39,735 nt of DNA from Escherichia phage AV103: the sequence record OR352934.1. One strand, 5' to 3'. Below are positions 2,786 to 39,090 of the stretch, piece after piece (position 1 is the stretch's first letter; every line of letters starts with the position of its first letter). The notes beneath the pieces were generated by a model. The model was not told the DNA's origin. It did not search any database and was given only the letters and a program-made list of their open reading frames with translations. The position numbers and the translations under genes were made by a program.

Positions 2786-3225
2786 GTGTCCTCCTTATAA
2801 GAGTCCTTCCGTGGACTACACGTCTTTCCTTGATATGATTATTCCAGACCCTTCAACTCAGCCATGAGTTTCAGTAAGTCCTGCTCAATGTCCTTCTTAG
2901 TTCGCTTTTTGGTTTCCTCTGGTGCGTGGAATTTCTTACCGTCCCATGTACACCCTCTCCAGTTACCAGAGAACTCGAAGGAATCAGTCACAATAATGGT
3001 TCCTCCTTCTACTGGTACGTACATACCAGACACAGGCCCGTCGGTAGCCCACATAACGTCGCCGTTAGGTCCAATTCCAACCACCCATGTTTCTTGGCGC
3101 TCATCTAGTTCTTCCATCAAGGTGTACCAATCAACGTTATTGTGGTCACGAATCTCATAGATTGGTTTTCCAAAATAAAACCCTTCGGTCCACTTCCAGT
3201 TAGTAAATACTCTCATTGTCCCTCC

Positions 3226-4887
3226 TTATTGTGACGCAATGATTCTTTTTGTGCCATTATGGAAACCAAGCCATACTGGTCTTAAAAAGATACCAGCAAC
3301 ACCCCCATTACTAACGGTTGTACCTGTTTGAACATGTCCAGATGGCGCTATAATGTCGTGATAACCTCCACCGTATCGGTTCCACACTTGAGGACCTAGA
3401 TAGACATCCCCTATGAAATATCTTCGTATCCAATCATCTAGGTATCCGGAATCATACGCAATACCCCAAACTCTACCATTAGGGTCAAAAGAGCCATTCC
3501 GTACAACCACACGTCCACCATCGGCCCAAATCTCCCCAGGGACGTGGAAGTCTCCATTGGTATTGAACGACCAAAGTTTATCACCTGCCCCTTCGTCTTT
3601 CATATGTATGTGGAATGACGGATGCGCTCCATTCAGCAATGTACCGATAGACCAGCATCCTGCCCACCGTCCAGATTGGTAAGTTCGTTGCTTTATTATT
3701 GGGTGATATGAGCTTGTAGATTGTACACGAATCTGTTGGAAGAAAGGAGCTTTAGTGTTGTACTGGTCAGCGAAAGCGTGAGCTATGCGATCATCAGCAT
3801 CTGACTCTAACACACCGCCAGCTATTGTTAACTGATTAAGTCTAATCTGGTGACGATGTTGCTCAGTCTTGTCCGCTGCATACTCTATGAACCCTATACC
3901 GTCCGGTCGGTCAATAGCGAGGTCAGACTTAAGGAAGTCGCCTTCTTCCCAAAGACCCATACGGAACCTAAATGCGTGGTTAGTTTGGAGTCCGTATACG
4001 GGACCCCCAACCCAATAGCCCCCTCCTCTCCAGAATACAGTATCACCCTGAACGCTATCTACAGCACCAGCAAAAGCATTCATGTTGCCAAGTTTGTCTG
4101 CTTCCTGCTTCGCTCGGTCTGCTTGCTGTTTTGAAGAAGCCGCAGAATCCGCTGAGGCCGTAGCTGAGTTCCCAGCGTTTACCTCAGATTGGCGTGCAGC
4201 GGTAGCGGAGTTACCAGCAGACGTAGCGTATTGACCAGCGGTGTTCTTGAACTGTTCAGCCTCATTACGGAACCCATAAGCCTCATCACGCCACTGCTTC
4301 GTGTTAGCAGCATTAGTGCCAGACTCGGTCTTAAAGCCATCCGCTTGATTTCTGAAAGTCTCAGCCTCATTACGGAACTGCAGGGCCTCGTTACGCGCCT
4401 GCCATGAGCTTTGGTTCATGGTCTTAAGTTGACCAAGCGGAACAGCGTCACGGTCATCAACGGCGTTCGCTAGGTTCACGATACGACGACCACGGGCATC
4501 CAAGTGACCATCATTGTTGACACCAATAGTATCCGCAGTTAAGTCACGGGCTTCTTCCGCTACATGCATAGTCTGAATCTGAGCCACGTTAAGGTCGTAA
4601 GCACGCAGGATTGAACCATCCGTAAAGTCAACAAGACGGTCAGTCGTGGAGGTTACTCGGCGTAGCTCAATAGTAGTGTAACCATCCGCAGGTCCCCAAG
4701 ATTTGGTTAGCGAGATAGTAGTGCGCGTAGCAAAGCGATAATCTGTATTAAGTGTGAGTACCTTACGGTCAACACCAATGAGAGTTACCACTACGAACTT
4801 ACGGGCTAGATATTCAAACGGGATGTTAAAATCACGATTTGAACCATCTAACGGGTAAGTCAAAACGGTCTTAATTACGTTAGCCAT
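3226..4887 (-). CDS. 17: Tail fibre protein, 553 aa
   Basis: 553-aa ORF MANVIKTVLTYPLDGSNRDFNIPFEYLARKFVVVTLIGVDRKVL...; length equals T7 gp17; preceded by a T7-type promoter. Confidence 0.95.
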   Translation of the reverse strand: MANVIKTVLTYPLDGSNRDFNIPFEYLARKFVVVTLIGVDRKVLTLNTDYRFATRTTISLTKSWGPADGYTTIELRRVTSTTDRLVDFTDGSILRAYDLNVAQIQTMHVAEEARDLTADTIGVNNDGHLDARGRRIVNLANAVDDRDAVPLGQLKTMNQSSWQARNEALQFRNEAETFRNQADGFKTESGTNAANTKQWRDEAYGFRNEAEQFKNTAGQYATSAGNSATAARQSEVNAGNSATASADSAASSKQQADRAKQEADKLGNMNAFAGAVDSVQGDTVFWRGGGYWVGGPVYGLQTNHAFRFRMGLWEEGDFLKSDLAIDRPDGIGFIEYAADKTEQHRHQIRLNQLTIAGGVLESDADDRIAHAFADQYNTKAPFFQQIRVQSTSSYHPIIKQRTYQSGRWAGCWSIGTLLNGAHPSFHIHMKDEGAGDKLWSFNTNGDFHVPGEIWADGGRVVVRNGSFDPNGRVWGIAYDSGYLDDWIRRYFIGDVYLGPQVWNRYGGGYHDIIAPSGHVQTGTTVSNGGVAGIFLRPVWLGFHNGTKRIIASQ

Positions 4888-16638: not shown

Positions 16639-17562
16639 TCAGAAGTTCGAGTCGATTACTTTCTGTTCGACTTGACGACGATAATTGGCATCTGTGCGAT
16701 ACCGAGGGTCGCTCATAGCTTTAATCATCTCGCTACGGTCCGCAAAGCCTTCACGCTTGGTCGCCTGAGGTTTAGCCGGAATAGCACGATTAGTCACGCT
16801 ACGAGTTGGCTTACGACCGAACGCCTTAGCGCGAGACTCACCAGCCAAGTTGATGATAGCCTTAACGGTCGCTAAGTCACGATTGGTCAACGCATTGTCC
16901 AGTGACTGTGCAGCCTCAGGGTTGTGCGTCTCAAGGTGATTGTACAGTGCGTCAAAACGCTCACGACCGCCAGCGTACTCAATGACACTGTTTACGTACC
17001 GCTCCACCAGAGCCTCTTGACCACGAATGTATGAGTCAATGAAAGCCTTCGTGTAGCCAATTTCAGCCAGCTTAGCGTAGGACTCAGCGGACAACTCTTC
17101 GTTCTCCTCGTACTCACGCTGGATGGCCTCTATGGTCTCAACACTCATGCCACGCTCGGCAGCAATGTTAATCATCTCTTGGAAGCCCTCTTCGTGCTCG
17201 CCAAGTTGCTCAGAGGCGGCTACCAGTTCTTCTGGAGTCTCACCCAGCGGGGTAAACTCCTCGGAACCTTCGGTGTCATCAGCGCCTTCTTCACCAGTGT
17301 CCACATCGGTCGGCTCAGAGCCATCCCCAATGCGAACCTGAATGCGGCCTTCGTCATCCTCTTGACCGAATGGGTCAGAGTTGTCGTACAGGTCACGTTC
17401 TGTTTCCACTTCGTCGGACGCTAACTCGATTGCATCATCGCCATCACGGGCAGCAACATCAAGAGCCAGCATGTTCTGCTCATGTTCCTCAACGGAACCA
17501 CCAGACATCACAGCGGAGTTCACGCCAAAAGATGCATATACGTCTGCATTAGATTCAGCCAT
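16639..17562 (-). CDS. 9: Capsid assembly (scaffolding) protein, 307 aa
   Basis: 307-aa highly acidic ORF between portal and capsid genes; same length as T7 gp9. Confidence 0.95.
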   Translation of the reverse strand: MAESNADVYASFGVNSAVMSGGSVEEHEQNMLALDVAARDGDDAIELASDEVETERDLYDNSDPFGQEDDEGRIQVRIGDGSEPTDVDTGEEGADDTEGSEEFTPLGETPEELVAASEQLGEHEEGFQEMINIAAERGMSVETIEAIQREYEENEELSAESYAKLAEIGYTKAFIDSYIRGQEALVERYVNSVIEYAGGRERFDALYNHLETHNPEAAQSLDNALTNRDLATVKAIINLAGESRAKAFGRKPTRSVTNRAIPAKPQATKREGFADRSEMIKAMSDPRYRTDANYRRQVEQKVIDSNF

Positions 17563-17638
17563 TATTATTGTCTCCTTAAAGTTGAACTACAGGGAGACGC
17601 AGCGAAGGTCCGCAGTACGGATTGCCTCGAAGTCTTAC

Positions 17639-17661
17639 TCTCCCTATAGTGAGTCGTATTA
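17639..17661 (-). promoter_or_regulatory. T7 RNAP promoter (phi9)
   Basis: Reverse complement TAATACGACTCACTATAGGGAGA overlapping the 3' end of gene 8. Confidence 0.9.
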
Positions 17662-19269
17662 AATACCCGGCTGTAGACCTACGGACTCAGCGGCAGCAGT
17701 CATAGCCTCAGGTGAAGCTGTGGCCTGCGCAGCCATACCTTGACCAAGCGCAGCAGCACCACTATCCATACCCATTTGCATAGACTGTTGAGCCATCCTC
17801 TGTTGCTTCTGTTCTTCGGTAAGAAGGATACCAGAAGTGTCAATACCGATGGCGTTAGCAATGCGCAACTTAATCATAGCAAGGTTGATGTCAGGGTCAT
17901 CACGCATAGGAGCTAGAGCAGCCCACGCAGTGACACAACGCTCCAGCTTATCGAGGTCTTGACCACGACCGATTGCTTCCAGACCTGTACTAATGGTTGG
18001 CTCTACGGCTTCCTTAGGTAACTCAGGAATCTGTTGCGTGGCTTGTAGTTGCTTCAAGAGCACTCGTACCAGAGGCAATTGTAATTCTTGAGAAAGGATT
18101 GAGTAGACACCACCTAAAGTATCTTCAAGTTCAGAAGCGACATACCGAATCTCTTCGGCGGTAACACGTTCACCTGTGCGCTGAACCGCAGAGTTCAACA
18201 TAAAGGCAAACGAAAGTCGAGCCTCAATAGCGTCACTGACAGCCTTGGCTACAGTAAAGTCTGCTTGCTTCTCCAGTTGGAGGAACGAGATGTCTTCTGG
18301 ACGACCAGTAACGAAGTCACCAGTCTGAGCTTTGGTCAGTCGGCGTGGCTGGGTGATACCAGCAGGATTCACTAAGCCGATAACCTTAGAGCTAATCATG
18401 GACATCTTGACGATAGCCTCTTGGAGATTCTCAAGGGACCGTAAGTCACCTAAGTATTCCTCAATGTACGAACGACCGTAGGATTCACCGTCCAGACGAA
18501 CCATTCGAATCGGGATGTATGGGCAAGCATCTTTAGGATACGCCCCATCGGAGCCTTGTATCTCCATACCTTCAACCTCTTCGTAGCGGAGATATTCGTC
18601 TGACTCTTCGTCCAAGTAGATGTGAGTATACACATCAATGGTCTCATCAGGTTTCTTCTCACCGCCTTGACCTTCTACAGCCTTACGGATGTCCTCAGGG
18701 AGAGCACCAAAAGCTATCTGGTCACGAGTCACCATTTGCAGAACGTTGCCGAATGCGTCTCGTTGGACCACATAAGAAGACAATCGGTACAGCTTCATGG
18801 GATTATAGTTTGACCCTTCCGGTTCAGGTAGGTACAGCAGGACATTACCAGCTACGACTAACTGTTTGAGAGCCTCAAAGAGAGTCACTCGGTAACTGTT
18901 AGACTCAATGTAGTTCATGATGATACGCTCTACCATCGAGAGACCCTCATCGACCTTAGCGAGTCCATCGGGGTCATTCAGTAACTGTTTTGCTTCATAC
19001 TCAGAGATGGTCAGCTTCATCCACGTTTGCATCGGGAAGAGAGCCAGCATGAGCTTAGAGGCCAAGTTATTGAGACCGCGAGCACCCACAGCTTGCCACG
19101 GAGTTGTGTAGTCTGTGGATGAGTTATCGGAGTCCTTAGGGAAGAGGGACGGAATGGTATACTGAGCGCAGTTTTGGGCACGAGTCTCATAAGGAGCGCG
19201 GTCGTTCTTTAATCGCTCATAGACCGACTTTGCACCTTCCTCGGCTAGACCTGTACGCTTCTCAGCCAT
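17659..19269 (-). CDS. 8: Portal (head-to-tail connector) protein, 536 aa
   Basis: 536-aa ORF MAEKRTGLAEEGAKSVYERLKNDRAPYETRAQN...; length equals T7 gp8. Confidence 0.95.
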   Translation of the reverse strand: MAEKRTGLAEEGAKSVYERLKNDRAPYETRAQNCAQYTIPSLFPKDSDNSSTDYTTPWQAVGARGLNNLASKLMLALFPMQTWMKLTISEYEAKQLLNDPDGLAKVDEGLSMVERIIMNYIESNSYRVTLFEALKQLVVAGNVLLYLPEPEGSNYNPMKLYRLSSYVVQRDAFGNVLQMVTRDQIAFGALPEDIRKAVEGQGGEKKPDETIDVYTHIYLDEESDEYLRYEEVEGMEIQGSDGAYPKDACPYIPIRMVRLDGESYGRSYIEEYLGDLRSLENLQEAIVKMSMISSKVIGLVNPAGITQPRRLTKAQTGDFVTGRPEDISFLQLEKQADFTVAKAVSDAIEARLSFAFMLNSAVQRTGERVTAEEIRYVASELEDTLGGVYSILSQELQLPLVRVLLKQLQATQQIPELPKEAVEPTISTGLEAIGRGQDLDKLERCVTAWAALAPMRDDPDINLAMIKLRIANAIGIDTSGILLTEEQKQQRMAQQSMQMGMDSGAAALGQGMAAQATASPEAMTAAAESVGLQPGI

Positions 19270-19283
19270 GTGTCACCTCCTGT

Positions 19284-19604
19284 TTAAATGTTGATGCCGC
19301 CACCGGAGCTACGGGCTACACTCAAGGACTTCTTACCGCCAGAACGAGCTTTCCTGCGTCCGCTTTCGGTCTGTGCTTCGTCCTCAGTGGAAACCTCTTT
19401 CTCAGGTACGTCAACAATTTGTGCAGCAGGGGTCGCAGCAGCCGTTGGCTGTGGTACTTCCACCACCTGTGCTTCACCAGCACCACCTGCCAGCGCACCA
19501 GCAACCTGTTTAATAGGACGAGTCACTTCCTTGGTAACTTTCTTCACAGCTTTCTCAACGGGCTTAGTGATTTTCTTCACTACCTTCTTAACTTTCTTAC
19601 CCAT
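19284..19604 (-). CDS. 7.3: Gene 7.3-like virion/host-range protein, 106 aa
   Basis: Lysine-rich N-terminus MGKKVKKVVKKITKPVEKAVKKV and C-terminus KSLSVARSSGGGINI, as I recall for T7 gp7.3. Confidence 0.85.
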   Translation of the reverse strand: MGKKVKKVVKKITKPVEKAVKKVTKEVTRPIKQVAGALAGGAGEAQVVEVPQPTAAATPAAQIVDVPEKEVSTEDEAQTESGRRKARSGGKKSLSVARSSGGGINI

Positions 19605-19607
19605 AAC

Positions 19608-20009
19608 TTATACCTCCTTAAAGTATACACGCATTGTCTCGCCTTCATGTTTACAGCGGGACACCCAATCGCAATCGTGGAGTTCTGCAAGGTACTTAAA
19701 GCGTTTCGCGAGGAATCGCTGTAAGCCCTTAGAGTCTGCCTCAGGATTAATAACAACTGACGTAACGTCCAGAATGTCTCCCTTGTGGTGAATGTCACAG
19801 CTTACGCACCACGCGAAGTACGCTACATGTTTTCCGGTAGAGTCCAGAATGTACTCTTCACGGCAACCAGACATGTCCATAACTTCGTCAACGTAGAGGC
19901 TGTAGCCCACAAAGTGTCCTTCGAATCCCTTAGGCAACCCAAGGTGTTCCACAGTCCACCGAATTGCACGGAAGCGACTCTTGGCCTCCACACATGTGAA
20001 CTCAGGCAT
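19608..20009 (-). CDS. 7: Gene 7 host-range protein, 133 aa
   Basis: 133-aa ORF between 6.7 and 7.3; same length as T7 gp7. Confidence 0.85.
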   Translation of the reverse strand: MPEFTCVEAKSRFRAIRWTVEHLGLPKGFEGHFVGYSLYVDEVMDMSGCREEYILDSTGKHVAYFAWCVSCDIHHKGDILDVTSVVINPEADSKGLQRFLAKRFKYLAELHDCDWVSRCKHEGETMRVYFKEV

Positions 20010-20275
20010 TACTTCTTACCTCCGAATGCGGACTTACGGATTGAAGATTTCATACGAGCTGAACCAGTACCACTGGCTTTAGACTTCGCTACGGAATCAT
20101 CGCGTTCGACCTTGAGGTCTTTGCGTCCAGACACTTCGGTGCCTTCGGTATCCGTCTCATCAGAAGACCCACCGAACTCTACGCTTGACACTTCTTTGGT
20201 CAGAGGCGCTGGCTCAACGGCTCGAATCTGATTGGTATCCATCTTCGGAACTTTAACTTTCGGTGAGAAACACAT
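20009..20275 (-). CDS. 6.7: Gene 6.7 virion protein, 88 aa
   Basis: Start at internal ATG (MCFSPKVKVPKMDTNQIRAVEPAPL...) with SD GGGAGGA; 88 aa as T7 gp6.7. Confidence 0.8.
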   Translation of the reverse strand: MCFSPKVKVPKMDTNQIRAVEPAPLTKEVSSVEFGGSSDETDTEGTEVSGRKDLKVERDDSVAKSKASGTGSARMKSSIRKSAFGGKK

Positions 20276-20279
20276 AAGG

Positions 20280-20534
20280 TCAATCCTCCCCATCATCTCT
20301 TAGTTGTTCCTTGCGTAACTCAATCTCATCAATGACGTTAGAGGCATACTGTAGGCCCTGAATGAAACCCAAGATGTGGGCTTCACTACAACCATTAGCA
20401 CGCATAAGTCCTATATGACCAGACGCTTCGAGATACGCATAGTTGAATCGAACCTGTAGATACTCAGCGGTTGCACGAGGCACATCTGGAATATCGTTAG
20501 GGTTCTTAAGTAATTGGTTAATAGGTGTTAACAT
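20280..20534 (-). CDS. 6.5: Gene 6.5 protein, 84 aa
   Basis: 84-aa ORF immediately downstream of phi6.5. Confidence 0.8.
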
Positions 20535-20570
20535 GATAAAGATTCCTCTTAGAGTTAAATCTTAAAGTAA

Positions 20571-20645
20571 TAATCATAAAGGCCCCTATCTCCCTATAGT
20601 GAGTCGTATTAATTTAGGGACCTTGAGTTTATCACTTAGTGTCGT
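20571..20645 (-). promoter_or_regulatory. RNase III site (R6.5-like) enclosing the phi6.5 promoter
   Basis: ATCATAAAGGCCCC...GGGACCTTGAG inverted repeat flanks the promoter sequence. Confidence 0.5.
20589..20611 (-). promoter_or_regulatory. T7 RNAP promoter (phi6.5)
   Basis: Reverse complement TAATACGACTCACTATAGGGAGA. Confidence 0.9.
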
Positions 20646-20745
20646 GTAACGACTTGATTACTAGGGCTAAGTCCCAAAGGCCCAACGAAATGATGCACGT
20701 TCCGAGAGCACAAATAATAATGCCAAGCCACTCTATGGTCTCCAC
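20632..20745 (-). CDS. 6.3: Gene 6.3-like small hydrophobic protein, 37 aa, GTG start
   Basis: GTG at 20745 preceded by AAGGAGA with 7-nt spacer; translates (M)ETIEWLGIIICALGTCIISLGLWDLALVIKSLHDTK; overlaps the gene 6 stop as T7 6.3 does. Confidence 0.5.
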   Translation of the reverse strand: METIEWLGIIICALGTCIISLGLWDLALVIKSLHDTK

Positions 20746-21635
20746 AGGTAAATCTCCTTGTCAATAAAGTTGTACTCGTTGAACCGAAGGATGCGAGCCA
20801 TCTGGCCCTGCTTGATAATATCCTCTTCGGTCATACCAGCCTTAGCACCAATGGACTTAATGCAGTCCCAAAGCGTCTCATGAGGCTCAGGGGCGCGTTT
20901 AACCCATTTAGTAACCTCTTGGCCTTTGTTCTTACCAGACTTAAGCACAGACGTTTTAGGCTCGACTATGAACGGGTTATTCAAGAAGTCCTCGGCGGTA
21001 TCACCCCATCCGGCAATCCCTGAGTAACCATCGGTGATGTCACCTTTGATTGTCTGGAAGAGGTGCCACCAGTCAGCGGACTCCTCTGTCTGAGTAATGA
21101 TGTTACCAGTGGTACACCACAGGAAATCACAGTTAGGGATGGTCTTAAAGTCCTTATCGCACGAGATGATTACCGCCTTACGAGCACCGAAGGCAGACGG
21201 ATTGGAAGCAATAACTCCCATAACGTCATCACCCTCAAGCATCGGCTCGCGGATGCAATAGAACTCTTCGCGCTCAAAGAGAGCATCAAGGAACTCAAAG
21301 TAACCTACAGGTTTCTTAGTGGCCTTACGGTTAGCCTTGTAGTTCGGGTCAACCAGTTCTTTACGCCAGTTAACACTATCGGTGAACGCAAGGACAATCG
21401 GAGCACCTACCCAAGCCTTCTTACGGGTCTCGTAGGACTTAATGGAATCCTCAAGAATCTGACGGGCCTTAGCGTGGTCACAACAGCGATGCCAAATCTC
21501 TTCCTCCCATGAGGCATCAAACTCAGCAGCACTCATCGCTTGGAAGACCAGCCAGTCACCATCCATCACAAGGATGCCCTTGTCGTCACAGCCTTCACGT
21601 AACTCGTAGAATTGTTTCAGGTCAAGAAGCGCCAT
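20733..21635 (-). CDS. 6: 5'-3' exonuclease, 300 aa
   Basis: 300-aa ORF, same length and position as T7 gp6. Confidence 0.95.
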   Translation of the reverse strand: MALLDLKQFYELREGCDDKGILVMDGDWLVFQAMSAAEFDASWEEEIWHRCCDHAKARQILEDSIKSYETRKKAWVGAPIVLAFTDSVNWRKELVDPNYKANRKATKKPVGYFEFLDALFEREEFYCIREPMLEGDDVMGVIASNPSAFGARKAVIISCDKDFKTIPNCDFLWCTTGNIITQTEESADWWHLFQTIKGDITDGYSGIAGWGDTAEDFLNNPFIVEPKTSVLKSGKNKGQEVTKWVKRAPEPHETLWDCIKSIGAKAGMTEEDIIKQGQMARILRFNEYNFIDKEIYLWRP

Positions 21636-21780
21636 TAAGTTTCTCCTCTAGCTCAGCCACGTATTCGTCAGCTTCCATTAGTTGATTCTTAAGGCTATCG
21701 TTCTCACGTTCCAGAGAGTCGATGTAGCCCTGCATATCGTTCCATACATCGCGCGGAATAGTCACAAGGTCGCTAGACAT
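21622..21780 (-). CDS. 5.9: Gene 5.9 RecBCD inhibitor, 52 aa
   Basis: Internal ATG gives MSSDLVTIPRDVWNDMQGYIDSLERENDSLKNQLMEADEYVAELEEKLNGAS; start overlaps the 5.7 stop (TAATG). Confidence 0.8.
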   Translation of the reverse strand: MSSDLVTIPRDVWNDMQGYIDSLERENDSLKNQLMEADEYVAELEEKLNGAS

Positions 21781-21989
21781 TATACACACCCTCCCATTCG
21801 TTTCAGAAAGCGAGTACCAGAAGCAGTAATTTCCCAAGCGCCACCGTTACGTCCACTTGTGGTCAGGCACGAGATGTGACCACGGGAAGCGGCCTCCGCT
21901 ACGAGGCTCGCATTGTTACGTACATAGTTGGACTGGAAAGTCTTAGGGCAACTTTTGATTGCTTGCAGCACTTTCAAGTAGTCAGACAT
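21780..21989 (-). CDS. 5.7: Gene 5.7 protein, 69 aa
   Basis: 69-aa ORF, same length and position as T7 gp5.7. Confidence 0.85.
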   Translation of the reverse strand: MSDYLKVLQAIKSCPKTFQSNYVRNNASLVAEAASRGHISCLTTSGRNGGAWEITASGTRFLKRMGGCV

Positions 21990-22288
21990 CAGAACACCTC
22001 CCGTACAGTTGCAGGAGAGAGTTTGAAGTAGTCCTTATCGGCATACTCTTCGTGCATGTCCTTGATTGCCTCACGAAATGATGTACGCACTACGAACGCC
22101 ATCAAACCTTCCATACCGTTGGTCAGGAACTGGACAATCATTTCCTTCTGTTTACCATCTGGGACAATCGCACCTGAGCCGACCTGCTTACATAGATGCA
22201 GCATGTCTTTCTCTAAGATTGCCTGAACGTCAGACGGCATCTTTGCGGTAACATCAAAGGACACTTTAAATTTCTTAGTGATAGCCAT
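21989..22288 (-). CDS. 5.5: Gene 5.5 protein (H-NS-binding in T7), 99 aa
   Basis: Start at ATG 22288 (MAITKKFKVSFDVTAKM...) with SD GGAGAAATTATT; the in-frame upstream part of the 157-aa ORF overlaps polymerase exon 2. Confidence 0.85.
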   Translation of the reverse strand: MAITKKFKVSFDVTAKMPSDVQAILEKDMLHLCKQVGSGAIVPDGKQKEMIVQFLTNGMEGLMAFVVRTSFREAIKDMHEEYADKDYFKLSPATVREVF

Positions 22289-22307
22289 AATAATTTCTCC
22301 TATAGTA

Positions 22308-22463
22308 TCAGTGACATACGGCCCAGTTAGGACCCATCTTACCTTCGGTATCCAGAAGACACCGGAAGTTCCAGTGGTCTCCAACCCAGCGCATTGCTTC
22401 TTGTGCGGTCTCAATGACCACCTTAGCAATCTCTTCGGTACGGCAACCCACTTGAATCTCATC
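22308..22463 (-). CDS. 5: DNA polymerase exon 2 (C-terminal 51 aa)
   Basis: Frame translates DEIQVGCRTEEIAKVVIETAQEAMRWVGDHWNFRCLLDTEGKMGPNWAVCH*, the conserved polymerase C-terminus; continues exon 1 after the intron. Confidence 0.85.
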   Translation of the reverse strand, partial: DEIQVGCRTEEIAKVVIETAQEAMRWVGDHWNFRCLLDTEGKMGPNWAVCH

Positions 22464-23063
22464 CTTTCTGTATTCTCCTATTACTAGGAGTGTCGGACTA
22501 TATCATCAGCCTTTGAGTTGACTGTCTGGCGCTTCGGGTAACGAGGGAATCTCACCCTCGGCCCTACTCCTTTCGGATAGTCTCTACGCCTTCCACTCTC
22601 TAATCCACTTACAAGCGGCAGAGAACGTTACACCAAACTTCTCACCTAAGTGTGTCCCTGTACATCCAGTCTCAAACCAGTATTCCTTCGCGGACTCTTT
22701 ACGGTCAGCGTAGCGTTCCATGTTTGTCTTGACTGTATGCTCAGAACCTTCTAGTAACTGGAGGTGCTCTACGTTACAGCACGCCCTGTTCCTACACTTG
22801 TGGTCTACTTCATACCCTTCTGGTATATCCCCGTAGTGTTCCTTCCAGACTGTCCTGTGATACATTTCTAGTACACCGTTCGTCTTCTTTCGGAAATAAC
22901 CATCAGCATTAAGTTTGTGTGACGTAGGGATGATACAACCACTCTCTGTGGTCGCAAGGATTAACTTCTTGCCTCTCATATATCCTCCCTATGGCTTGGC
23001 TCGGTATTGCCCAGAAGGGTTTCACCGAGTTCACCAGATTTAATGTGCACAATGAGATAGTTT
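22464..23063 (-). mobile_element. Intervening sequence in the DNA polymerase gene, probable group I intron carrying an HNH endonuclease ORF (600 bp)
   Basis: Polymerase frame stops 7 codons after ...FAYMAWVH and resumes 600 nt downstream; exon 1 ends in U, intron ends in G; internal ORF has its own SD; about 200 nt of non-coding flank. Confidence 0.8.
22584..22979 (-). CDS. Intron-encoded HNH homing endonuclease, 131 aa
   Basis: HNH motif EVDHKCRNRACCNVEHLQL; SD GGGAGGATAT-ATG; lies wholly inside the interruption of gene 5. Confidence 0.85.
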   Translation of the reverse strand: MRGKKLILATTESGCIIPTSHKLNADGYFRKKTNGVLEMYHRTVWKEHYGDIPEGYEVDHKCRNRACCNVEHLQLLEGSEHTVKTNMERYADRKESAKEYWFETGCTGTHLGEKFGVTFSAACKWIREWKA

Positions 23064-25022
23064 ATGCACCCATGCCATGTACGCAAAGTCCCCATCCCAG
23101 CCATGCTTCAAGCCTTTCTCTACGAGCATCTCTTCGGTCTTGATAATCCACAGTTTGCAGATGAGAGCACCCGCAGATTGCAGTAGTGTATTCAAGGCAG
23201 CGTGAGGACTACGAACGTGTACCTTACGACCATCCAGACCTTTAATCCAGCGGCGTTTCCACTTGACTTGTTGCTCACCAGCTACCCATTGAGAGGACTC
23301 GACAAGTGTCTGTTGGATAGACTCACGGAGTGCTGCAATCGCTGGTGTGTTCTCAAGGAATTTCTTCTTGAGTTCCTTACCGCGTTCTTTACCAGCACCT
23401 ACAATCTGTCCAATCTTCTCATCACCAGCGCCATAAAGGAACCCATAGATGAACGTCTTGGCGTTATCACGGGTAGGCAGTTCGGCAGCTAGTTGGTTCT
23501 TAGTGTGGATGTCACCATGAAGAATCTCTCTAGCGTACTCACCGTTATCAAAGCGAGCCATGAAGTGGGCCAAACAGCGCAACTCAAGGCCGGATGCGTC
23601 GATACCTGCCTGAACCCAAGGCTTACCAGTTATCCCATCCAAATGGTGCTCAGCGCCAAAAGCAGCGCGACACTGCTCTCCATAAGGAGAACGTACACCC
23701 GGAATTTGTGCAAGGTTGGGGAACGCATGGGTCGCACGACCCGTAACTGCTCCATTAGGGTTAACAGAACCATGAATCTTACCATCCTCAGCAACGTAAC
23801 GAAGCCATGCCTTGTCTCCCTCAGCGGACTGTCCGATTCGCTTCTGAATCATCAAGTACTCTTTAATGAGGTCGATAGCGGCTTGCTTCTCAGGGTCATC
23901 TACACGCACTCCTTCGAGTACCTCATCGTCCACCACAGGAGCACCATTATCGGTGTACTTGGTCGGGACCCATCCAGCCTCTTGGAGTTTCTTCTGAATG
24001 TGGTCACGAGACGAAGGGTTAAACACAACGTGCTCAACTGGAGTATAAGGAGCACCAGCAACATACTCGCGGGTGTCCAGTTCGCAAGGCTCACGGCCTT
24101 CTCGCTGTGCCTTGTTCTTAGGCTTCTTAAAGATACCACCTACTTTAGGTATCTTAATGCGAGGGTATTTAGGCAGTGGCTTACCTGTCCGTGGATGGCA
24201 GAACATTTCGGTGCCACCTTTAGGCTGATACCACGAGCCGAACGTTTCGGTCAATTTACGGAGCAACTCAGAGCGTCTAGCAGCTAACTCTACGTACAAC
24301 TCTTCGATTGCTTTCGTGTCAAACGGGAACCCATTGCGCTCTTGCTTAGCGAGTAGCCATGCAGCACGATGCTCAATGTCAACGGCCTCAAGGGATTCTG
24401 ACCAGAACGTAGTGTATCCTACGTCCGTAAAGTCAATCTCAGGAGGGAAGTAATGTTTGTCAGAGAGTAGCTTCTCAAGGAGAGTTTTAGTGACCACAAC
24501 GTCCTGAACGTTATAGGCCATCATCTCTTCGTTGAAGTTCCACCACTCCATCCCGTCAACGTATTCTTCACCCTGCTCTTCAAGCATACGCTTAAAGTCG
24601 TCCTTGTATTCACCTTTCATCTCGCCTAAGCGATAGCCCCACGCCTCCAGAGCGTGAGACCCAAAGCGTTTCCCAGGCAACTTACCGGAACGCAGAAGAC
24701 CCATATCGGTGTCCTTGAGGTTAGAGTGAATCAAGCGTGACAGCACAAGTGTGTCAATACAGTTCTCACGAGGAATGTGGAACTCTCGGTTCAACTGCAA
24801 CTTAGCCAGCTTGGTTAACGCAGGGATGTCAAATTTAGTGAAGTTATGTCCTACGATGAGTCCTCCCTTTGCTACCTCAGCTTCTAATGCGTCAAGGTAT
24901 TTATTAAAGTCCACAGGGCGATACTTGTTGTATTCTCCAGTACTGTAGTCATAGATAACCGCGCAATGGAATTTAGTAGTGGTCTCAAGTAGACCGTTTG
25001 ATTCGATGTCTGAGACAATCAT
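23064..25022 (-). CDS. 5: DNA polymerase exon 1 (N-terminal 653 aa)
   Basis: [27 protein letters not shown]... 3'-5' exo and pol motifs; exon 1 + exon 2 = 704 aa, the T7 gp5 length. Confidence 0.9.
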
Positions 25023-25459
25023 TAGAGTTCTCCTTTAAGATACCTTATGGCATTCTCCAACCTATCTGTAGAATCGAAGAATTTACCTAAACCAATATTG
25101 CAGTGCCAGCATAATAGCCCACGAACTTTCAGAGTTAAATGGTCGTGGTCAATACAGGCTACCTTATGTCTCTCGGATGAGTGTGCCATTATAGCGTCTC
25201 CACATATCTTACACCTCCCTCCTTGCGAGTTCCATAATTCCTCATACTGCTCTACTGTCAGGCCATACTTCTTGATTTGAGATTTACGAGAACTCCACCT
25301 ATGGGCCTCTCGCTTCTCAGCATCATGCTTATGGTATCTCGCATTGTTATCTTTACGGACGCACTCTTTACACCAAGTTCTAAGACCGTCCTTCATGCGG
25401 GAAGCCTTACCGAACTCGGAGAGCGGCTTTCCGTTCCCACATTTAGAACAAATCTTCAT
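25022..25459 (-). CDS. HNH / endonuclease VII-family protein with N-terminal CxxC zinc finger, 145 aa (putative free-standing homing endonuclease)
   Basis: MKICSKCGNGKP...WCKEC... then CKICG...CIDHDHLTLKVRGLLCWHCNIGLG, resembling T4 endonuclease VII; SD GGAGGTGG; stop overlaps polymerase ATG. Confidence 0.75.
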   Translation of the reverse strand: MKICSKCGNGKPLSEFGKASRMKDGLRTWCKECVRKDNNARYHKHDAEKREAHRWSSRKSQIKKYGLTVEQYEELWNSQGGRCKICGDAIMAHSSERHKVACIDHDHLTLKVRGLLCWHCNIGLGKFFDSTDRLENAIRYLKGEL

Positions 25460-25462
25460 GCC

Positions 25463-25485
25463 ACCTCCTATAGTGAGTCGAATAG
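25463..25485 (-). promoter_or_regulatory. T7 RNAP promoter (phi4.7-like)
   Basis: Reverse complement CTATTCGACTCACTATAGGAGG directly upstream of the 145-aa HNH ORF. Confidence 0.7.
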
Positions 25486-25488
25486 TAT

Positions 25489-25525
25489 TCATGAAGGCCA
25501 CCACTTGGGCGACCTTGAGGATACC
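25489..25525 (-). promoter_or_regulatory. RNase III hairpin (R4.7-like)
   Basis: AAGGCCACCACTTGGGCGACCTTGAG inverted repeat between gene 4.5 and the phi4.7-like promoter. Confidence 0.45.
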
Positions 25526-25529
25526 ACTC

Positions 25530-25799
25530 TTAGCTTTCAATCTTGTCGAGGATAGCCATAGCTTCATTGATGCGACCAGCCTCATGAATTGCTGTCACGG
25601 CAGCTTTGGTAAGCGCATTGACCAGACGCAGTGCTTGCTCATCTGTCAACGTCATACGCTGAGTGTGATTCTTAGAGGACTTAGAGTCCTTCCATCGGTA
25701 AACCATAGTCGCCTTACCGTTGCGAACGTTGATGTGGACTCGACGGTTCCACTGGTCAGCGGTATCGGATAGACGGATAGTTTCAGCTACGTTTGACAT
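25530..25799 (-). CDS. 4.5: Gene 4.5 protein, 89 aa
   Basis: Internal ATG with SD GGAGAAACCATT gives MSNVAETIRLSDTADQWNRRVHINV..., 89 aa. Confidence 0.8.
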   Translation of the reverse strand: MSNVAETIRLSDTADQWNRRVHINVRNGKATMVYRWKDSKSSKNHTQRMTLTDEQALRLVNALTKAAVTAIHEAGRINEAMAILDKIES

Positions 25800-25818
25800 A
25801 ATGGTTTCTCCTGTTTGA

Positions 25819-26031
25819 TTACTCAAAGAATTTGGAAAGCTGTTGAGCTTGGTTTGCTACACGGGCAGCTTCGGTAACTTTGGCGGATGCACTATCAGCC
25901 AGTTCGTTGGAGCGAATCGCCAGAGCGCGTGACTGTGTGGCCTCTTTACGGGCCTCATCGTTCAGACGTTTTGCTTCCACGTTGTACATACGAACCAGCA
26001 GTTGGCCTAATTTCTTAATCAGTTTGAACAT
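25819..26031 (-). CDS. 4.3: Gene 4.3 protein, 70 aa
   Basis: 70-aa ORF downstream of phi4.3; same length as T7 gp4.3. Confidence 0.8.
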   Translation of the reverse strand: MFKLIKKLGQLLVRMYNVEAKRLNDEARKEATQSRALAIRSNELADSASAKVTEAARVANQAQQLSKFFE

Positions 26032-26042
26032 GGGTGTCTCCT

Positions 26043-27792
<1,750 letters not shown>

Positions 27793-27824
27793 TCAACAAT
27801 GAGAACAAAGGGAAACCGTTGTGG

Positions 27825-27847
27825 TCTCCCTTTAGTGAGTTCAATTA
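27825..27847 (-). promoter_or_regulatory. T7 RNAP promoter (phi3.8) with GGGAGACCACAACGGTTTCCC leader
   Basis: Reverse complement AATTAATTGAACTCACTAAAGGGAGACCACAACGGTTTCCC, directly upstream of gene 4 here. Confidence 0.85.
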
Positions 27848-27848
27848 A

Positions 27849-28304
27849 TTATCCACGGTCAGAAGTTACAAGTTCATTCTTCTCCCACCAACGCTTAAGG
27901 TCGAACGACGGGCAAGCCTTAGGGGCCACGTCATGATGCGCCCGAAGCACAGCGCCTTCGTACTTAGCCAGCAGTGTGACAAGCAGTGAGCGGAGGGATT
28001 GCATTTGGGCTGGCGTAAAGTTAGCGTCAAACTTACCTTTATCGTCGATACCACCTACAAGGCATACACCAATAGAGTTGTGATTGTAGTCCTTAGCGTG
28101 AGAGCCTACAGCCATCTCATCGCGGCCTTCCTCTACAGTACCATCGCGCTTGATGATAAAGTGATACCCGACATCAAGCCAACCTTGCTCTTTATGCCAC
28201 TGACGAATCTCACGGACACCTACATTCTGACTTGGCTTGGTAGCCGAGCAGTGAACAAAGATTGCGTCAGTAGATTCACGTTGTTTAAACTGTACACGAG
28301 CCAT
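27849..28304 (-). CDS. 3.5: Lysozyme (N-acetylmuramoyl-L-alanine amidase; RNAP inhibitor), 151 aa
   Basis: 151-aa ORF MARVQFKQRESTDAIFVHCSATKPSQNVGVREIRQWHKEQGWLDVGYHFIIKRDGTVEEGRDE...; amidase_2 fold motifs. Confidence 0.95.
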   Translation of the reverse strand: MARVQFKQRESTDAIFVHCSATKPSQNVGVREIRQWHKEQGWLDVGYHFIIKRDGTVEEGRDEMAVGSHAKDYNHNSIGVCLVGGIDDKGKFDANFTPAQMQSLRSLLVTLLAKYEGAVLRAHHDVAPKACPSFDLKRWWEKNELVTSDRG

Positions 28305-28759
28305 TATTTCTTTCCTCCCTTCGATTGTTTCAGCTTGTCAAATGGCACCTCCTTTTTGGGTTCTTTGAGCCATTCTACAGGAATTAATTTGTCAGCAAAC
28401 AGAATACCGTGCTTCTCACACCACTCGCCATAACTGGTCGGAGACCCTTTATACAGCTTGGTGCGTGAGCTTGAGAACACCAGTCGGATGTCCAGTTCGG
28501 GGAACTGTTCGCGAACCAATAAGTGTTTCTTTCGGTCGTCACTCTCCCATAAACCTTTGGTTTCAATAAAGATTCCGTTAGGCAGCAGGAAGTCTGGAGT
28601 ATACACATGGTTGCTCGCAGGGACAACGTAAGGGATTTTCCATAGTTCATAGTCGAACTGAATGCCCTTACCCTCTAGCTGCTTAGAGACCTTATCTTCT
28701 AGGCCGGAACGGAATGTCCCGACCTTTCGGATACCACGCGCAGCGTATGCGCCAGCCAC
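28304..28759 (-). CDS. 3: Endonuclease I (Holliday junction resolvase), 151 aa
   Basis: MAGAYAARGIRKVGTFRSGLEDKVSKQLEGKGIQFDYE...PDFLLPNGIFIETKGLWESDDRKKH, the T7 endo I family. Confidence 0.95.
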   Translation of the reverse strand: MAGAYAARGIRKVGTFRSGLEDKVSKQLEGKGIQFDYELWKIPYVVPASNHVYTPDFLLPNGIFIETKGLWESDDRKKHLLVREQFPELDIRLVFSSSRTKLYKGSPTSYGEWCEKHGILFADKLIPVEWLKEPKKEVPFDKLKQSKGGKK

Positions 28760-29458
28760 TTAGAAATCTCCGTCTTCGTCTACTTCATCGGACTCTTCGT
28801 CGTCTTCGTCCCAGCTTTCTTCGTCGCGTGGTTTGCTCGCTTTGGCAGAACCAGAGGCAACATAGCCGTTCTCTTCAACTTCGTCAGCCCAATCATCTTC
28901 ACCGCCACCAAAGGTAGCCAGTTCGACCAGCATTACGGATTCCAGTTGCAGCTTAACGCTCGCTCCTACAGCGGTGTTCCACTTGTACGGAACCAGAGAG
29001 TATTTGACTTTCAGCTTAGAGCCACCGCCGATAATCGGAACGTCTTCCATCTTCTTACCTTTGGAGTCAACCACAACCAGATTGATGTGTTTGGTTTCTT
29101 TAGTCTTCTTGTCCTGATAGGAAGCGTATGCCTTAAACTTAAAGGTAGTCGTGCCGTCACCGTTATCGAAGAACGGCATGTCACCTTCATACGGTTTCAG
29201 CGGTTTCTTACCGCGAGCTACAGCAGGCGGGTTCGCTTCGTATTCCTCAACGGCAGCAGCATAAGCCTCTTCGTGACACTTCACGATTTCATCGACCATA
29301 CGCTGGCAGCGCGGGTCTTTGTTGGGAATAGTCAGGTCAACTTTATAGACACCGCGAGGGTTCCCGAAGCCACGCTCTTCGTTGCCGTAGTCCGGCTTGG
29401 AGAGGTAAGCGTAAGGTTCAGCAGTACCCAGCGCAGAGGTGAAAATCTTCTTAGCCAT
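28760..29458 (-). CDS. 2.5: Single-stranded DNA-binding protein, 232 aa, acidic C-terminal tail
   Basis: 232-aa ORF ending DEDDEESDEVDEDGDF; length equals T7 gp2.5. Confidence 0.95.
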   Translation of the reverse strand: MAKKIFTSALGTAEPYAYLSKPDYGNEERGFGNPRGVYKVDLTIPNKDPRCQRMVDEIVKCHEEAYAAAVEEYEANPPAVARGKKPLKPYEGDMPFFDNGDGTTTFKFKAYASYQDKKTKETKHINLVVVDSKGKKMEDVPIIGGGSKLKVKYSLVPYKWNTAVGASVKLQLESVMLVELATFGGGEDDWADEVEENGYVASGSAKASKPRDEESWDEDDEESDEVDEDGDF

Positions 29459-29507
29459 AATGTTAATCTCCTTTAGGTTTCGTTTGGTTTCTCAAAGGGA
29501 GTCTTCC

Positions 29508-29527
29508 CTCCCTAATAGTGAGTCGTA

Positions 29528-29530
<3 letters not shown>
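29508..29530 (-). promoter_or_regulatory. T7 RNAP promoter (phi2.5)
   Basis: Reverse complement TAATACGACTCACTATTAGGGAGG. Confidence 0.85.
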
Positions 29531-29843
<313 letters not shown>

Positions 29844-29923
29844 ATTCAACCTCTATAGCCCAATACATTAAGCGAAGTAACGCGCCTACTCCAGCGCAAA
29901 TTAATCCGAAGTACAGAACATCG

Positions 29924-30151
29924 TTAAGCATAGCGGTTCACCATAACACAGTCATCAGAATACTCATACTCCTCTACCTTAATAATCAGACTAGGTGTCT
30001 TCTTATAAGCAAACGGTAGGAGGTCACTATCACAATACTCACTGTGTCCTAGCGAGAACATCAACATACCAATGCGCAGCGCCTTGTATGCACGATAAAA
30101 CCTGTGCGCTCTACGCTTCACCGATGCAGCTTGAAGTTCTTCACGCGTCAT
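29924..30151 (-). CDS. Hypothetical small protein, about 75 aa
   Basis: ORF with start overlapping the 3' end of gene 1.7; weak SD; no recognisable motif. Confidence 0.35.
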   Translation of the reverse strand: MTREELQAASVKRRAHRFYRAYKALRIGMLMFSLGHSEYCDSDLLPFAYKKTPSLIIKVEEYEYSDDCVMVNRYA

Positions 30152-30680
30152 AACACTTATCCTTATGTTTCTCGTACAGTTCACCGTAGAACCCAGCTTT
30201 CGCCATGTCTTTCTCTAAGTAAGCCAGTTCGGACTTCTTACCAGCACGTAGGCGGTACTTAAGGATGTTCCCTAAGCAGTACCCTTTGAACTGCTCGCGA
30301 GTCATTGAACGGGCAATCACTTCGATAGCCTCAATGTCGTCGAACAGCATGTAATGGGAAGGCTTAGTGACACCTTCGATTGACTCAGCGGAAGGCTGGT
30401 CGTCTGTAGGAGTTACCTCTGGTTTATCCAGTTTAGGTTTACGCGGGTCCATCGCTCGGATTTCACTTAAGGTAATGTTCTCATCGTTTGTTACAGGGCA
30501 CTCACCACAAGGTACTCCAGCGCAGAACAGGCCGCAGCCAGATGTGTCACCAGTACGACCCTCGTTATTGTCTATCAACTTAATGATAATCTCTTGTTCA
30601 TGTTCGGTCATATTGTTAGCTCCTTTATTACAGGTGTGTGGATAACGGTCGTCTTTCTCTAAGCAAGCTATGCATCCCAT
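30141..30680 (-). CDS. 1.7: Gene 1.7-like protein (nucleotide kinase in T7), 179 aa
   Basis: Cys-rich N-terminus GCIACLEKDDRYPHTCNKG...CGLFCAGVPCGEC and conserved C-terminus KGYCLGNILKYRLRAGKKSELAYLEKD. Confidence 0.8.
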   Translation of the reverse strand: MGCIACLEKDDRYPHTCNKGANNMTEHEQEIIIKLIDNNEGRTGDTSGCGLFCAGVPCGECPVTNDENITLSEIRAMDPRKPKLDKPEVTPTDDQPSAESIEGVTKPSHYMLFDDIEAIEVIARSMTREQFKGYCLGNILKYRLRAGKKSELAYLEKDMAKAGFYGELYEKHKDKCYDA

Positions 30681-30940
30681 CAGAACACCTCCTTGATTCG
30701 TTTGAGTAACAGACGGACGAACGGGAAGCGGGTCACTGCCACACTAAGAACCGGACGTTTCTTGTCCATTGCTTTCTCAAAGTCACCACGGGTGATAATG
30801 ATGTGGACGCTTGGTGCCAAAGGAACTGTGTTACCAATAAGAGGTAACTTAGCTCGGTGCTCGCTCGCACATACGATTGAACGGTCAGCACGGCGAATCG
30901 TGAAATTCTCAAGACTTTTGTTGTAATGAAGTCGAAACAT
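30680..30940 (-). CDS. 1.6: Gene 1.6-like protein, 86 aa
   Basis: 86-aa ORF downstream of phi1.6; stop overlaps gene 1.7 start. Confidence 0.7.
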
Positions 30941-30945
30941 ATAGT

Positions 30946-30968
30946 GTCTCCTTTAGTGAGTCGTATTA
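30946..30968 (-). promoter_or_regulatory. T7 RNAP promoter (phi1.6)
   Basis: Reverse complement TAATACGACTCACTAAAGGAGAC. Confidence 0.85.
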
Positions 30969-31055
30969 AGCGTGACCATCTGGCATATCATCATCGCTAC
31001 AGTGGAGCGCAAGGCATCCTATGATGACAATGAGTGATGGTATTAAGTACATCAT
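30966..31055 (-). CDS. 1.5: Gene 1.5-like small protein, 29 aa
   Basis: MMYLIPSLIVIIGCLALHCSDDDMPDGHA between phi1.5 and phi1.6; hydrophobic; 29 aa as T7 gp1.5. Confidence 0.5.
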   Translation of the reverse strand: MMYLIPSLIVIIGCLALHCSDDDMPDGHA

Positions 31056-31062
31056 GATGTGT

Positions 31063-31085
31063 ACCTCCTTTAGTGAGTCGTATTA
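31063..31085 (-). promoter_or_regulatory. T7 RNAP promoter (phi1.5)
   Basis: Reverse complement GTTAATACGACTCACTAAAGGAGG. Confidence 0.85.
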
Positions 31086-31238: not shown

Positions 31239-31250
31239 ATAGTGTCTCCT

Positions 31251-37269: not shown

Positions 37270-37647
37270 TTATAAATCCTCCTCCCCCTCTTCGCAGTCT
37301 CCCTCTTCCTCTTCCTCTGCGACTTCCTCAAGGTACTCGTTCAGCAAGTCCTCAGCAACTTCCCAGAGGTCAATCGTGAGTTGCTCATAGATGCGAGCTT
37401 GCAGGATGCGAATTGTGTCCGTGGTGTCTGGCATCAGACCGGCATCCTCGAACGCACGATAGATACCGTCGCTTGCCATTACGCTAAAGACCTCAGAGTA
37501 GTGACGCGGAACTACACTATCGGCAGCCTCATGAACAGCATACGATAGATAATCAGGGTCACGGATAGCATCATGATGGATGATTTCTTTCAGTATTGCA
37601 TAAGCGCGGTCGAAAACGTTGCTGTAAGTCATGTTAGACATAGCCAT
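37270..37647 (-). CDS. 0.3: Ocr, DNA-mimic inhibitor of type I restriction-modification, 125 aa
   Basis: [16 protein letters not shown]...[40 protein letters not shown] plus polyacidic tail. Confidence 0.9.
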
Positions 37648-37679: not shown

Positions 37680-37726
37680 CTAATCATAAAGGCCACGCAT
37701 CGTGCATGACCTTGAGTTTAACACTT
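37680..37726 (-). promoter_or_regulatory. RNase III hairpin upstream of ocr
   Basis: ATCATAAAGGCCACGCATCGTGCATGACCTTGAG; near-duplicate of the hairpin upstream of the SAMase gene. Confidence 0.55.
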
Positions 37727-38183
37727 ATTGCACTTGCCAGCGGCGACCGAACTCATCAATCGTGAAGCAGCCTTGCAGCGGTGCGCCTTTAGGCACTTCT
37801 TGGAAACTACCTTGCAGACGTTCGGCCTTATACCCATCGATACCTTTAGCGTACACCAGACCAGCCGTGTGAGTCTGTGATTTGTATACCAGTACGCAGT
37901 CTTGCTCCCACTCATTGCAAGCTAAGCGAGCGACCTGTAAGACCTGTTCTTTGTCCTTGCAGCGTACACGAACCGTCTTTTCCTCAGTCGGTGCACTTGC
38001 GATTGCCTCACGATAGCATCCGGTCAAATCGGTTGACTCAACGGAGCCATAAAGACCCGGTGCGGCACGTAAGGTGCTAACCATGTGGCGGTGTCTGCTC
38101 ATATTCACCTCATCGTCGAGGTTGGAACGGAAAGCTGACACCAGTACATAGAAGACGTTAGCAGGCTCTTTAGTGAAAATCAT
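37725..38183 (-). CDS. S-adenosyl-L-methionine hydrolase/lyase (T3-type SAMase), 152 aa
   Basis: 152-aa ORF MIFTKEPANVFYVLVSAFRSNLDDEVNMSRHRHMVSTLRAAPGLYGS... as I recall for the T3 SAMase; SD GAGGT. Confidence 0.8.
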   Translation of the reverse strand: MIFTKEPANVFYVLVSAFRSNLDDEVNMSRHRHMVSTLRAAPGLYGSVESTDLTGCYREAIASAPTEEKTVRVRCKDKEQVLQVARLACNEWEQDCVLVYKSQTHTAGLVYAKGIDGYKAERLQGSFQEVPKGAPLQGCFTIDEFGRRWQVQ

Positions 38184-38717: not shown

Positions 38718-38930
38718 AAGACGATGGATGAAGATTATCTCTTTATAGGTAACAACAAGGCGTCTATAGGATAGGCTTTAGGATGGTCTTTAGGCTGGTC
38801 TTTAGAAGATACTTTAAGATGGGGATTGACTCATGGTGTCTTTAGGTGTAGTCTTTAGGTTGTAGACGGTAGGAATGACTTTAGGAGGTGACTTTAGGAG
38901 GATACTTTAGGAGGCTGTAACAGATAGGGA
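38718..38930. repeat. Left-end array of degenerate CCTAAAG-type heptamer repeats
   Basis: Plus strand shows about 10 copies of CTTTAGG / CTTTAAG / CTTTAGA at irregular 10-25 bp spacing. Confidence 0.75.
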
Positions 38931-39090
38931 CACAGAGAGACACTCAAGGTAACACTCAAAGGTAAACCATCGGGTCATCCCAACCTTAAGTAACCCTCAA
39001 GGTCAACCTTCGGTTGACTTTAGGTGATTGGCTGGGCTTTAGGGACCCCCCCCCCCCTATGGGGGAACTTTGGGTCCGTACACTGTGAGA
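38931..39090. repeat. Direct terminal repeat (single collapsed copy); physical genome end at about 39090
   Basis: Reverse complement begins TCTCACAGTGTACGGACCCAAAGTTCCCCCATAGGGG...CCTAAAGCCCAGCCAATCACCTAAAGTCAACC, matching the T7 left terminus; 160-bp extent assumed by analogy. Confidence 0.6.

Follow-up and report, generated by a model that had tools for sequence, protein, structure and literature searches.

Why a T7-like phage should lack a gene that T7 carries between gene 7.3 and the portal gene (gene 8) is the question raised by 14 nucleotides in the genome of Escherichia phage AV103 (OR352934.1), of which the whole stretch of 39,735 nucleotides analysed here is called the window. A sequence-only reading of the window had stated that gene 7.3 ends at position 19284 and gene 8 starts at 19269, that gene 7.7 is absent from the 14-bp spacer between them, and that this amounts to a clean deletion or insertion polymorphism at an accessory locus. 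The open reading frames and the sequence of the minus strand agree exactly with these positions, and the gene is indeed absent. However, to describe the locus by what is absent from it is misleading, as it is an insertion in T7 and a few lineages that needs explaining rather than a deletion in the window phage. We consider it very probable that nothing has been lost here, that the window displays the common endonuclease-free junction and that T7 and a minority of its relatives gained an HNH insertion, a direction that we read from the distribution among outgroups and not from a dated phylogeny.

The window is the genome of a T7-like phage (Teseptimavirus); relative to the T7 orientation it is stored in reverse complement, and it is circularly permuted. 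It aligns by blastn with T7 (NC_001604) in collinear blocks of 80-95% identity over almost its whole length, and the T7 blocks that bracket the site are 16833-19843 and 20240-35455. Its nearest relatives among GenBank phages (EmilieLinder_Bas103, JeanTinguely, vB_SmaP-UFV01 and 13a) are ~93-95% identical over 25 kb; no GenBank record is identical to the window, the top genome-scale identity being ~95%. Matches to the right end (39131-39937) and the left end (1-927) of T7 overlap at ~38926..39090, and the terminal repeat appears to be present once in the window, collapsed by assembly.

Five homologues of the late block, 6.5-6.7-7-7.3-8, lie on one strand in the T7 order, as judged by PHROG and blastn. 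Genes 6.5 (20280..20534), 6.7 (20009..20296) and 7 (19608..20009), all on the minus strand and each with a PHROG match, are followed on the same strand by gene 7.3 (19284..19604), which encodes a virion/tail assembly protein of 106 aa (PF11653 VirionAssem_T7, E 1.5e-43; phrog_1320, E 1.9e-27), ends with a TAA stop at 19284-19286 and whose product is 73% identical to T7 gp7.3 across 86 aligned residues. Gene 8 (17659..19269, minus strand; ATG at 19267-19269) encodes the portal or head-tail connector of 536 aa (phrog_449, head-tail adaptor, E 8.6e-223); the protein is as long as T7 gp8, and the gene differs from that of T7 at 127 positions over 1611 nt. The block is flanked by two T7 RNA polymerase promoters on the minus strand, each an exact match to the consensus: one of 23 nt at 20589..20611, in a position that fits T7 phi6.5, and one at 17639..17661, at the position of T7 phi9, which overlaps the end of gene 8. 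Since no such promoter lies between these two sites, 7.3 and 8 are co-transcribed, within a 6.5-6.7-7-7.3-8 transcription unit driven by the phi6.5-equivalent promoter. Two antisense open reading frames on the plus strand (19230..19724 and 19288..19791) were taken as spurious, as they lie opposite 7.3 and gene 7, both of which have strong family matches.

The spacer itself, ACAGGAGGTGACAC (19270..19283, minus strand), runs from the 7.3 TAA to the gene 8 ATG and holds the Shine-Dalgarno sequence AGGAGGT (19275..19281) 5 nt 5' of that ATG; it is the ribosome-binding site of the portal gene. There is no open reading frame between 7.3 and the portal gene, nor did we find a sigma-70-like promoter, an intrinsic terminator or a T7 promoter there; a search of the whole window with Rfam at the gathering threshold gave no matches, and the 14 nt contain no scar. 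The same spacer is also the unoccupied insertion site of the HNH endonuclease genes of the 7.7 family.

This second role becomes apparent from the comparison with T7. There, 7.3 ends at 19834, gene 7.7 (130 aa, 393 nt, the frame of roughly 130 aa that the sequence-only reading had placed at this site) occupies 19848-20240, and gene 8 begins at 20240. T7 and the window have homologous 7.3 and portal genes, the same Shine-Dalgarno sequence after the 7.3 stop and the same late unit between phi6.5 and phi9. Unlike the window, T7 has the 393-nt HNH gene between that Shine-Dalgarno sequence, here in a 13-nt spacer, and the portal ATG, with which the stop of 7.7 overlaps in TAATG, and the first ~300 nt of its gene 8 are of a different version (T-type, see below). 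In a genome-wide blastn comparison T7 positions 19844-20239 have no counterpart in the window, which has no ~130-aa HNH frame of the 7.7 type, with its ...TWRHI end and TAATG overlap, at this locus. Moreover, tblastn of the window with the 7.7-family proteins of T7, C5, ESh6, 13a, Bas102, Vec13 and L061, and with T7 2.8, 3.8 and 5.3, revealed no displaced copy of 7.7, the sole match being a distant paralogue inside an intron of gene 5 (ORF 22584-22979), 33-48% identical to the 7.7-family proteins. The absence of 7.7 is therefore real and a fixed feature of the gene order, so that chance is not relevant to it.

How unusual is such a direct junction? The sequence-only reading had itself suggested an alignment with T7 and T3 across 7.3-8, and had named a 14-bp junction common to T7-like genomes as the observation that would speak against it. 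T7 is occupied by 7.7, and T3 (NC_003298) has a direct 10-nt junction. Like the window, T3 thus lacks an endonuclease gene at this site, and its spacer carries GGAGG; unlike the window, it belongs to the genus Teetrevirus, has a spacer of 10 rather than 14 nt, lacks a gene 7 ahead of 7.3 and has a portal N-terminus that reads MADSKRTG.... Using the portal N-terminus as a probe, we then took 80 T7-like loci from IMG/VR, 79 of them evaluable, and estimated how far the portal start lies from the 7.3 stop: the gap is 13-23 nt in 73 of the 79, including loci with T3-like, Klebsiella-phage-like and Erwinia-phage-like portals, and only 6 of the 79 have an HNH gene. The window's own spacer, in the form [A/T]CAGGAGGTGACAC, recurs in ten IMG/VR contigs (by a pattern scan that left the first spacer base free) and is present in Bas104 and L035-L044.

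The GenBank records point in the same direction. A 255-nt junction probe matched 173 phage records, 52 of them contiguously across the junction. A sample of 60 rows, drawn at even steps down the ranking of the 173, comprised 15 natural empty junctions, 3 T7 clones from which most of 7.7 had been removed, 35 T7 or laboratory derivatives and 7 other occupied junctions. Extrapolated from this sample, and hence not a full census, GenBank holds ~43 natural isolates with an empty junction, contiguous across it at 90-98% identity, against ~20 natural occupied ones and ~100 T7 laboratory derivatives. Natural Teseptimavirus isolates with a direct junction are 92-97% identical to the window over 1.6 kb, with only point differences. 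The T7 type of gp7.7 (at least 95% aa identity) is found in 108 records which, among the matches listed, are laboratory derivatives or strains of T7 or belong to the Yersinia phiA1122/YpsP-G group. The empty 7.3/8 junction is thus the common state and probably the ancestral one, and T7 is among a minority with an apparently mobile, dispensable HNH gene of the homing-endonuclease type. Of the polymorphism proposed by the sequence-only reading, presence versus absence and the cleanness of the junction hold; its direction and its significance do not, given how common the empty state is. Neither arrangement is new in kind, as public genomes with annotated junctions of either sort, empty or occupied, are numerous.

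The occupants of the site also argue for insertion. T7 7.7 is annotated in RefSeq as an HNH endonuclease and matches Pfam HNH_3 (E 2.6e-13; 49.8 bits, where the cut-off is 24.8). Within Teseptimavirus the same site is occupied by at least four HNH lineages that have diverged from one another, namely those of T7, of C5/HZ2R8/Bas102/LNA7 (~70% aa identity to T7 gp7.7), of ESh6/ESh2/L048 and of 13a/AH67C600_Q5; further occupants are found in Vec13 (Kayfunavirus, 46% identity) and in L061 (50% identity), an IMG/VR contig whose portal is more divergent. All family members share the N-terminal HNH_3 core; a C-terminal region is conserved too, which in most of them ends in ...TWRHI with a stop that overlaps the portal ATG (TAATG), the exception being Vec13, which ends in ...TWRS with one base between its stop and the portal ATG. 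The last endonuclease codons (TGG AGA/AGG) contain a GGAG ahead of the portal gene. The C5 type keeps the whole empty-site spacer and an ATG upstream of the HNH gene (TCAGGAGGTGACAC-ATG-GAG...), indicating that the insertion point is the portal start codon. It would follow from this arrangement that T7 and a minority of its relatives acquired a free-standing HNH gene (7.7, ~130 aa) at the first codon of the portal gene and that this gene took over the portal Shine-Dalgarno sequence for itself, the portal gene then probably being re-initiated by way of the TAATG overlap and the GGAG in the last endonuclease codons.

Gene 7.7 is dispensable. Engineered T7 clones without 7.7 have been deposited as complete genomes, and viability is kept upon deletion of 7.7 (PMC12153263; bioRxiv 10.1101/2025.09.07.674715). 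The latter study counts 2.8, 3.8 and 7.7 among the homing endonucleases and reports an attenuation of the GAPS4 defence system by homing-endonuclease proteins of this sort (bioRxiv 10.1101/2025.09.07.674715). The same preprint refers to Birkholz et al. for interference competition by a phage homing endonuclease (as cited in 10.1101/2025.09.07.674715). Our literature search returned dispensability and homing-endonuclease status for gp7.7, and no report of a cleavage activity, a cleavage site or a target.

Occupancy of the site is accompanied by a difference in the adjoining portal gene. Gene 8 nt 12-27 (19243..19258, minus strand) contain five diagnostic third-codon positions, portal nt 12, 15, 21, 24 and 27, at which all changes are synonymous. 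The window reads AAGCGTACAGGTCTAGCC and has G, T, T, A and C at positions 19258, 19255, 19249, 19246 and 19243, which we call the E-type ('empty-site') haplotype, and it differs at all five from T7, whose T-type haplotype has A, A, A, T and G. The E-type, AAG CGT ACA GGT CTA GCC, is shared by the window, Bas104 and nine IMG/VR contigs; Bas104, EmilieLinder_Bas103, JeanTinguely, NC-A, N30, IME390, 64795_ec1 and EG1 all resemble the window in gene order (6.5-6.7-7-7.3-8), in the [A/T]CAGGAGGTGACAC spacer and in this haplotype. The T-type, AAA CGA ACA GGA CTT GCG, was present in 11 of the 11 occupied alleles inspected, which represent four endonuclease lineages. A site-by-site comparison of the alignments covered 11 empty alleles and 8 occupied ones, to which three further occupied ones were added. 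Of the empty alleles, 12 have a haplotype that is clear, and 11 of these, the window included, are of the E-type; the association (empty, 11 E and 1 T; occupied, 0 E and 11 T) gives a Fisher probability of ~1e-5, which is indicative only, the alleles not being phylogenetically independent. A chimera of the T7 endonuclease 3' end with an E-type flank had no full-length match in GenBank phages, among the matches listed, and it is on this result and on the 11 inspected alleles that we base the view that an E-type flank does not occur in occupied alleles.

The association is not absolute. PDP351P2 (OZ035763.1, L115 601-720) combines an empty 14-nt junction with a T-type block that has 0 differences from T7 in nt 1-36, and either has lost the endonuclease gene precisely or is a recombinant, while Vi06 (L049, Vi06-like) has an empty junction and a mixed haplotype. 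Occupancy and flank are therefore separable. The divergence extends well beyond the diagnostic segment, over about the first 300 nt of gene 8 (18970..19269, minus strand): in 30-nt windows, differences between empty and occupied alleles exceed those within the groups in the majority of windows as far as about nt 300, an excess that disappears beyond it. The fixed differences fall into two clusters, portal nt 12-27 and nt 87-126, and none of them falls within the final 150 nt of 7.3. The portal gene of the window differs from that of T7 by 9-12 nt per 60 over nt 1-300 (~17%) and by 0-2 per 60 over nt 301-600 (0-3%). The mean pairwise difference in the first 30 portal nt is 0.0 among occupied and 0.55 among empty alleles.

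What might maintain such a block? It looks, from the pattern of differences, like a linkage or co-conversion tract beside the insertion site, or like the footprint of an endonuclease target site. Free-standing phage homing endonuclease genes with linked conversion of flanking markers are exemplified by the seg and mob genes of T4, and intron-encoded I-HmuI can be named likewise. The 7.7 family resembles free-standing homing endonucleases in that a small HNH gene lies between conserved essential genes and is patchy among close relatives, and in that several diverged lineages occupy one site next to a linked divergence block in the adjacent conserved gene. It is unlike those systems in that its homing is putative, and the window, having no such gene, offers only a putative recipient or resistant site. 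An asymmetric block beside a patchy HNH gene is the expected outcome of co-conversion by a homing endonuclease, and plain linkage or shared ancestry fits it as well. If homing operates, endonuclease-driven gene conversion would keep the endonuclease gene and the adjoining portal segment together, and the window phage would be either a natural cleavable recipient or a resistant variant.

A more specific scenario is that the dimorphism at nt 12-27 and the ~300-nt block mark the region that the 7.7 family as a whole recognises or cleaves and that the window carries the cleavable allele. We regard this scenario as tentative and would sooner bet against it. With two clusters of fixed differences and a block that reaches to about nt 300, the sequence does not pinpoint a recognition site. 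If it were true, phages of the T7, 13a, C5 or ESh6 type would, in a co-infection, cut the window phage near the portal start and convert it. Homing and marker exclusion in T7-like phages could then be studied on a model open to direct test, and the persistence of 7.7 in T7 would have an explanation.

It is also conceivable that the two portal haplotypes reflect a constraint on translation initiation, the T-type codons keeping a weaker internal Shine-Dalgarno sequence and the AUG accessible behind an endonuclease 3' end. The near invariance of the first 30 portal nt within each class suggests some constraint at the nucleotide level, and the mean unpaired probability computed with ViennaRNA over -14..+6 is higher for the T-flank than for the E-flank behind four of five endonuclease ends (0.55/0.46, 0.49/0.35, 0.57/0.27 and 0.48/0.32), the two flanks being equal or nearly so behind two empty spacers. 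However, these folding effects are slight, and 13a shows the opposite order (0.31 vs 0.38), so that predicted RNA structure at the portal start yields a weak and inconsistent trend for the dimorphism. Moreover, the linked divergence reaches far past the translation initiation region, to about nt 300, and the T-flank also occurs with an empty spacer, in PDP351P2. We therefore think it rather unlikely that translation accounts for the haplotypes.

If the junction of the window had instead arisen by secondary loss, an ancestor with a 7.7-type gene would have shed it precisely, as in the cycle of gain, degeneration and loss of homing endonucleases. PDP351P2 illustrates what such an event should leave behind, since an empty junction with a T-type flank is the expected product of precise loss from a C5-type allele by way of ATGG microhomology, and the tolerance of laboratory T7 to deletion of 7.7 noted above (engineered clones; PMC12153263) indicates that a loss would be survivable. 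However, the flank of the window is of the E-type and not the T-type of every occupied allele inspected, its junction matches those of Bas104 and the ten IMG/VR contigs save for the first spacer base, the extrapolated ~43 natural isolates are contiguous across it, and more distant relatives, T3 included, are empty too. Engineered deletions also look different. They keep a 13+23-nt remnant, TCAGGAGGTTATC|CGTAAGACATGGAGACACATTTA, as in the T7 'Mutant' clones MZ375288.1 (L119, 150-290) and MZ375281.1 (L120, 180-320), in which the 13-nt spacer and the last 23 nt of 7.7 precede the portal ATG; this remnant is clearly unlike the natural empty junction, which in the window measures 14 nt and is scarless. 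Secondary loss in the window phage is thus improbable. That 7.7 was merely dropped by mis-assembly or annotation hardly deserves consideration, for even though a circularly permuted sequence with a collapsed terminal repeat is the product of an assembler, the same junction is present in numerous phages that were sequenced independently and in metagenomic contigs, and the flanking genes are intact and full length.

Gain of an HNH gene by T7 and a minority of its relatives thus remains the preferred explanation, and the window then shows the default T7-like gene arrangement, a result that matters little for this phage itself. It is T7 that makes a poor reference for normal gene content at the 7.3/8 locus, because its 7.7 is apparently a mobile insertion, and the presence or absence of small HNH genes in T7-like genomes is not to be scored as deletions. 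The occupancy-linked portal haplotype is the one modestly new point. Two discrete portal 5' haplotypes are an inexpensive handle for testing whether proteins of the gp7.7 family are active homing enzymes, and they warn against inferring phylogeny from the first ~300 nt of the portal gene.

Elsewhere in the window, mobile endonuclease genes are distributed differently than in T7. The DNA polymerase gene (gene 5) is interrupted by a 600-nt insertion (22463..23064, minus strand) at T7 position 16311/16312 that matches the full Rfam Intron_gpI model with 36.1 bits (E 2e-7), short of the gathering score (50), and contains a 131-aa HNH_3 endonuclease ORF (22584..22979, minus strand). The insertion is 98% identical to the matching region in phages 13a and Bas104, and most of it is found in 39 GenBank records; we take it to be akin to the group I intron with a homing endonuclease described in DNA polymerase genes of T7-like phages. 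The intron-encoded gene is the only HNH gene in the window, which is without the endonuclease-like genes 2.8, 3.8, 5.3 and 7.7 of T7 and has short direct junctions at ~28735..28756, ~27762..27797 and 22305/22306 in place of the first three. The window's load of mobile endonuclease genes thus differs from that of T7.

Several other regions set the window apart from T7. Two stretches have no blastn similarity to it: 25034..25465, a diverged gene 4.7 region, and 29924..30184 (minus strand), where an 86-aa ORF with no PHROG match lies upstream of the homologue of gene 2 (RNA polymerase inhibitor). Among the early genes, those for a 152-aa phrog_2226 protein (37725..38183, minus strand; E 5.6e-55), presumably similar to the SAM-cleaving protein of T3 gene 0.3, and for a 125-aa Ocr-like anti-restriction protein (37270..37647, minus strand; phrog_2568, E 1.2e-45) lie side by side, and the window phage appears to carry both anti-restriction genes where T7 has only Ocr. 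Finally, the tail fibre gene (3226..4887, minus strand; 553 aa) has DNA similarity to T7 gene 17 in its first ~830 nt only, half the gene, and is followed by an extra 125-aa ORF (2839..3216, minus strand) without a T7 counterpart that has a weak match to a tail-fibre-assembly protein (phrog_136, E 1e-5), which suggests that the receptor-binding module at 2839..4887 was exchanged together with a chaperone of its own.
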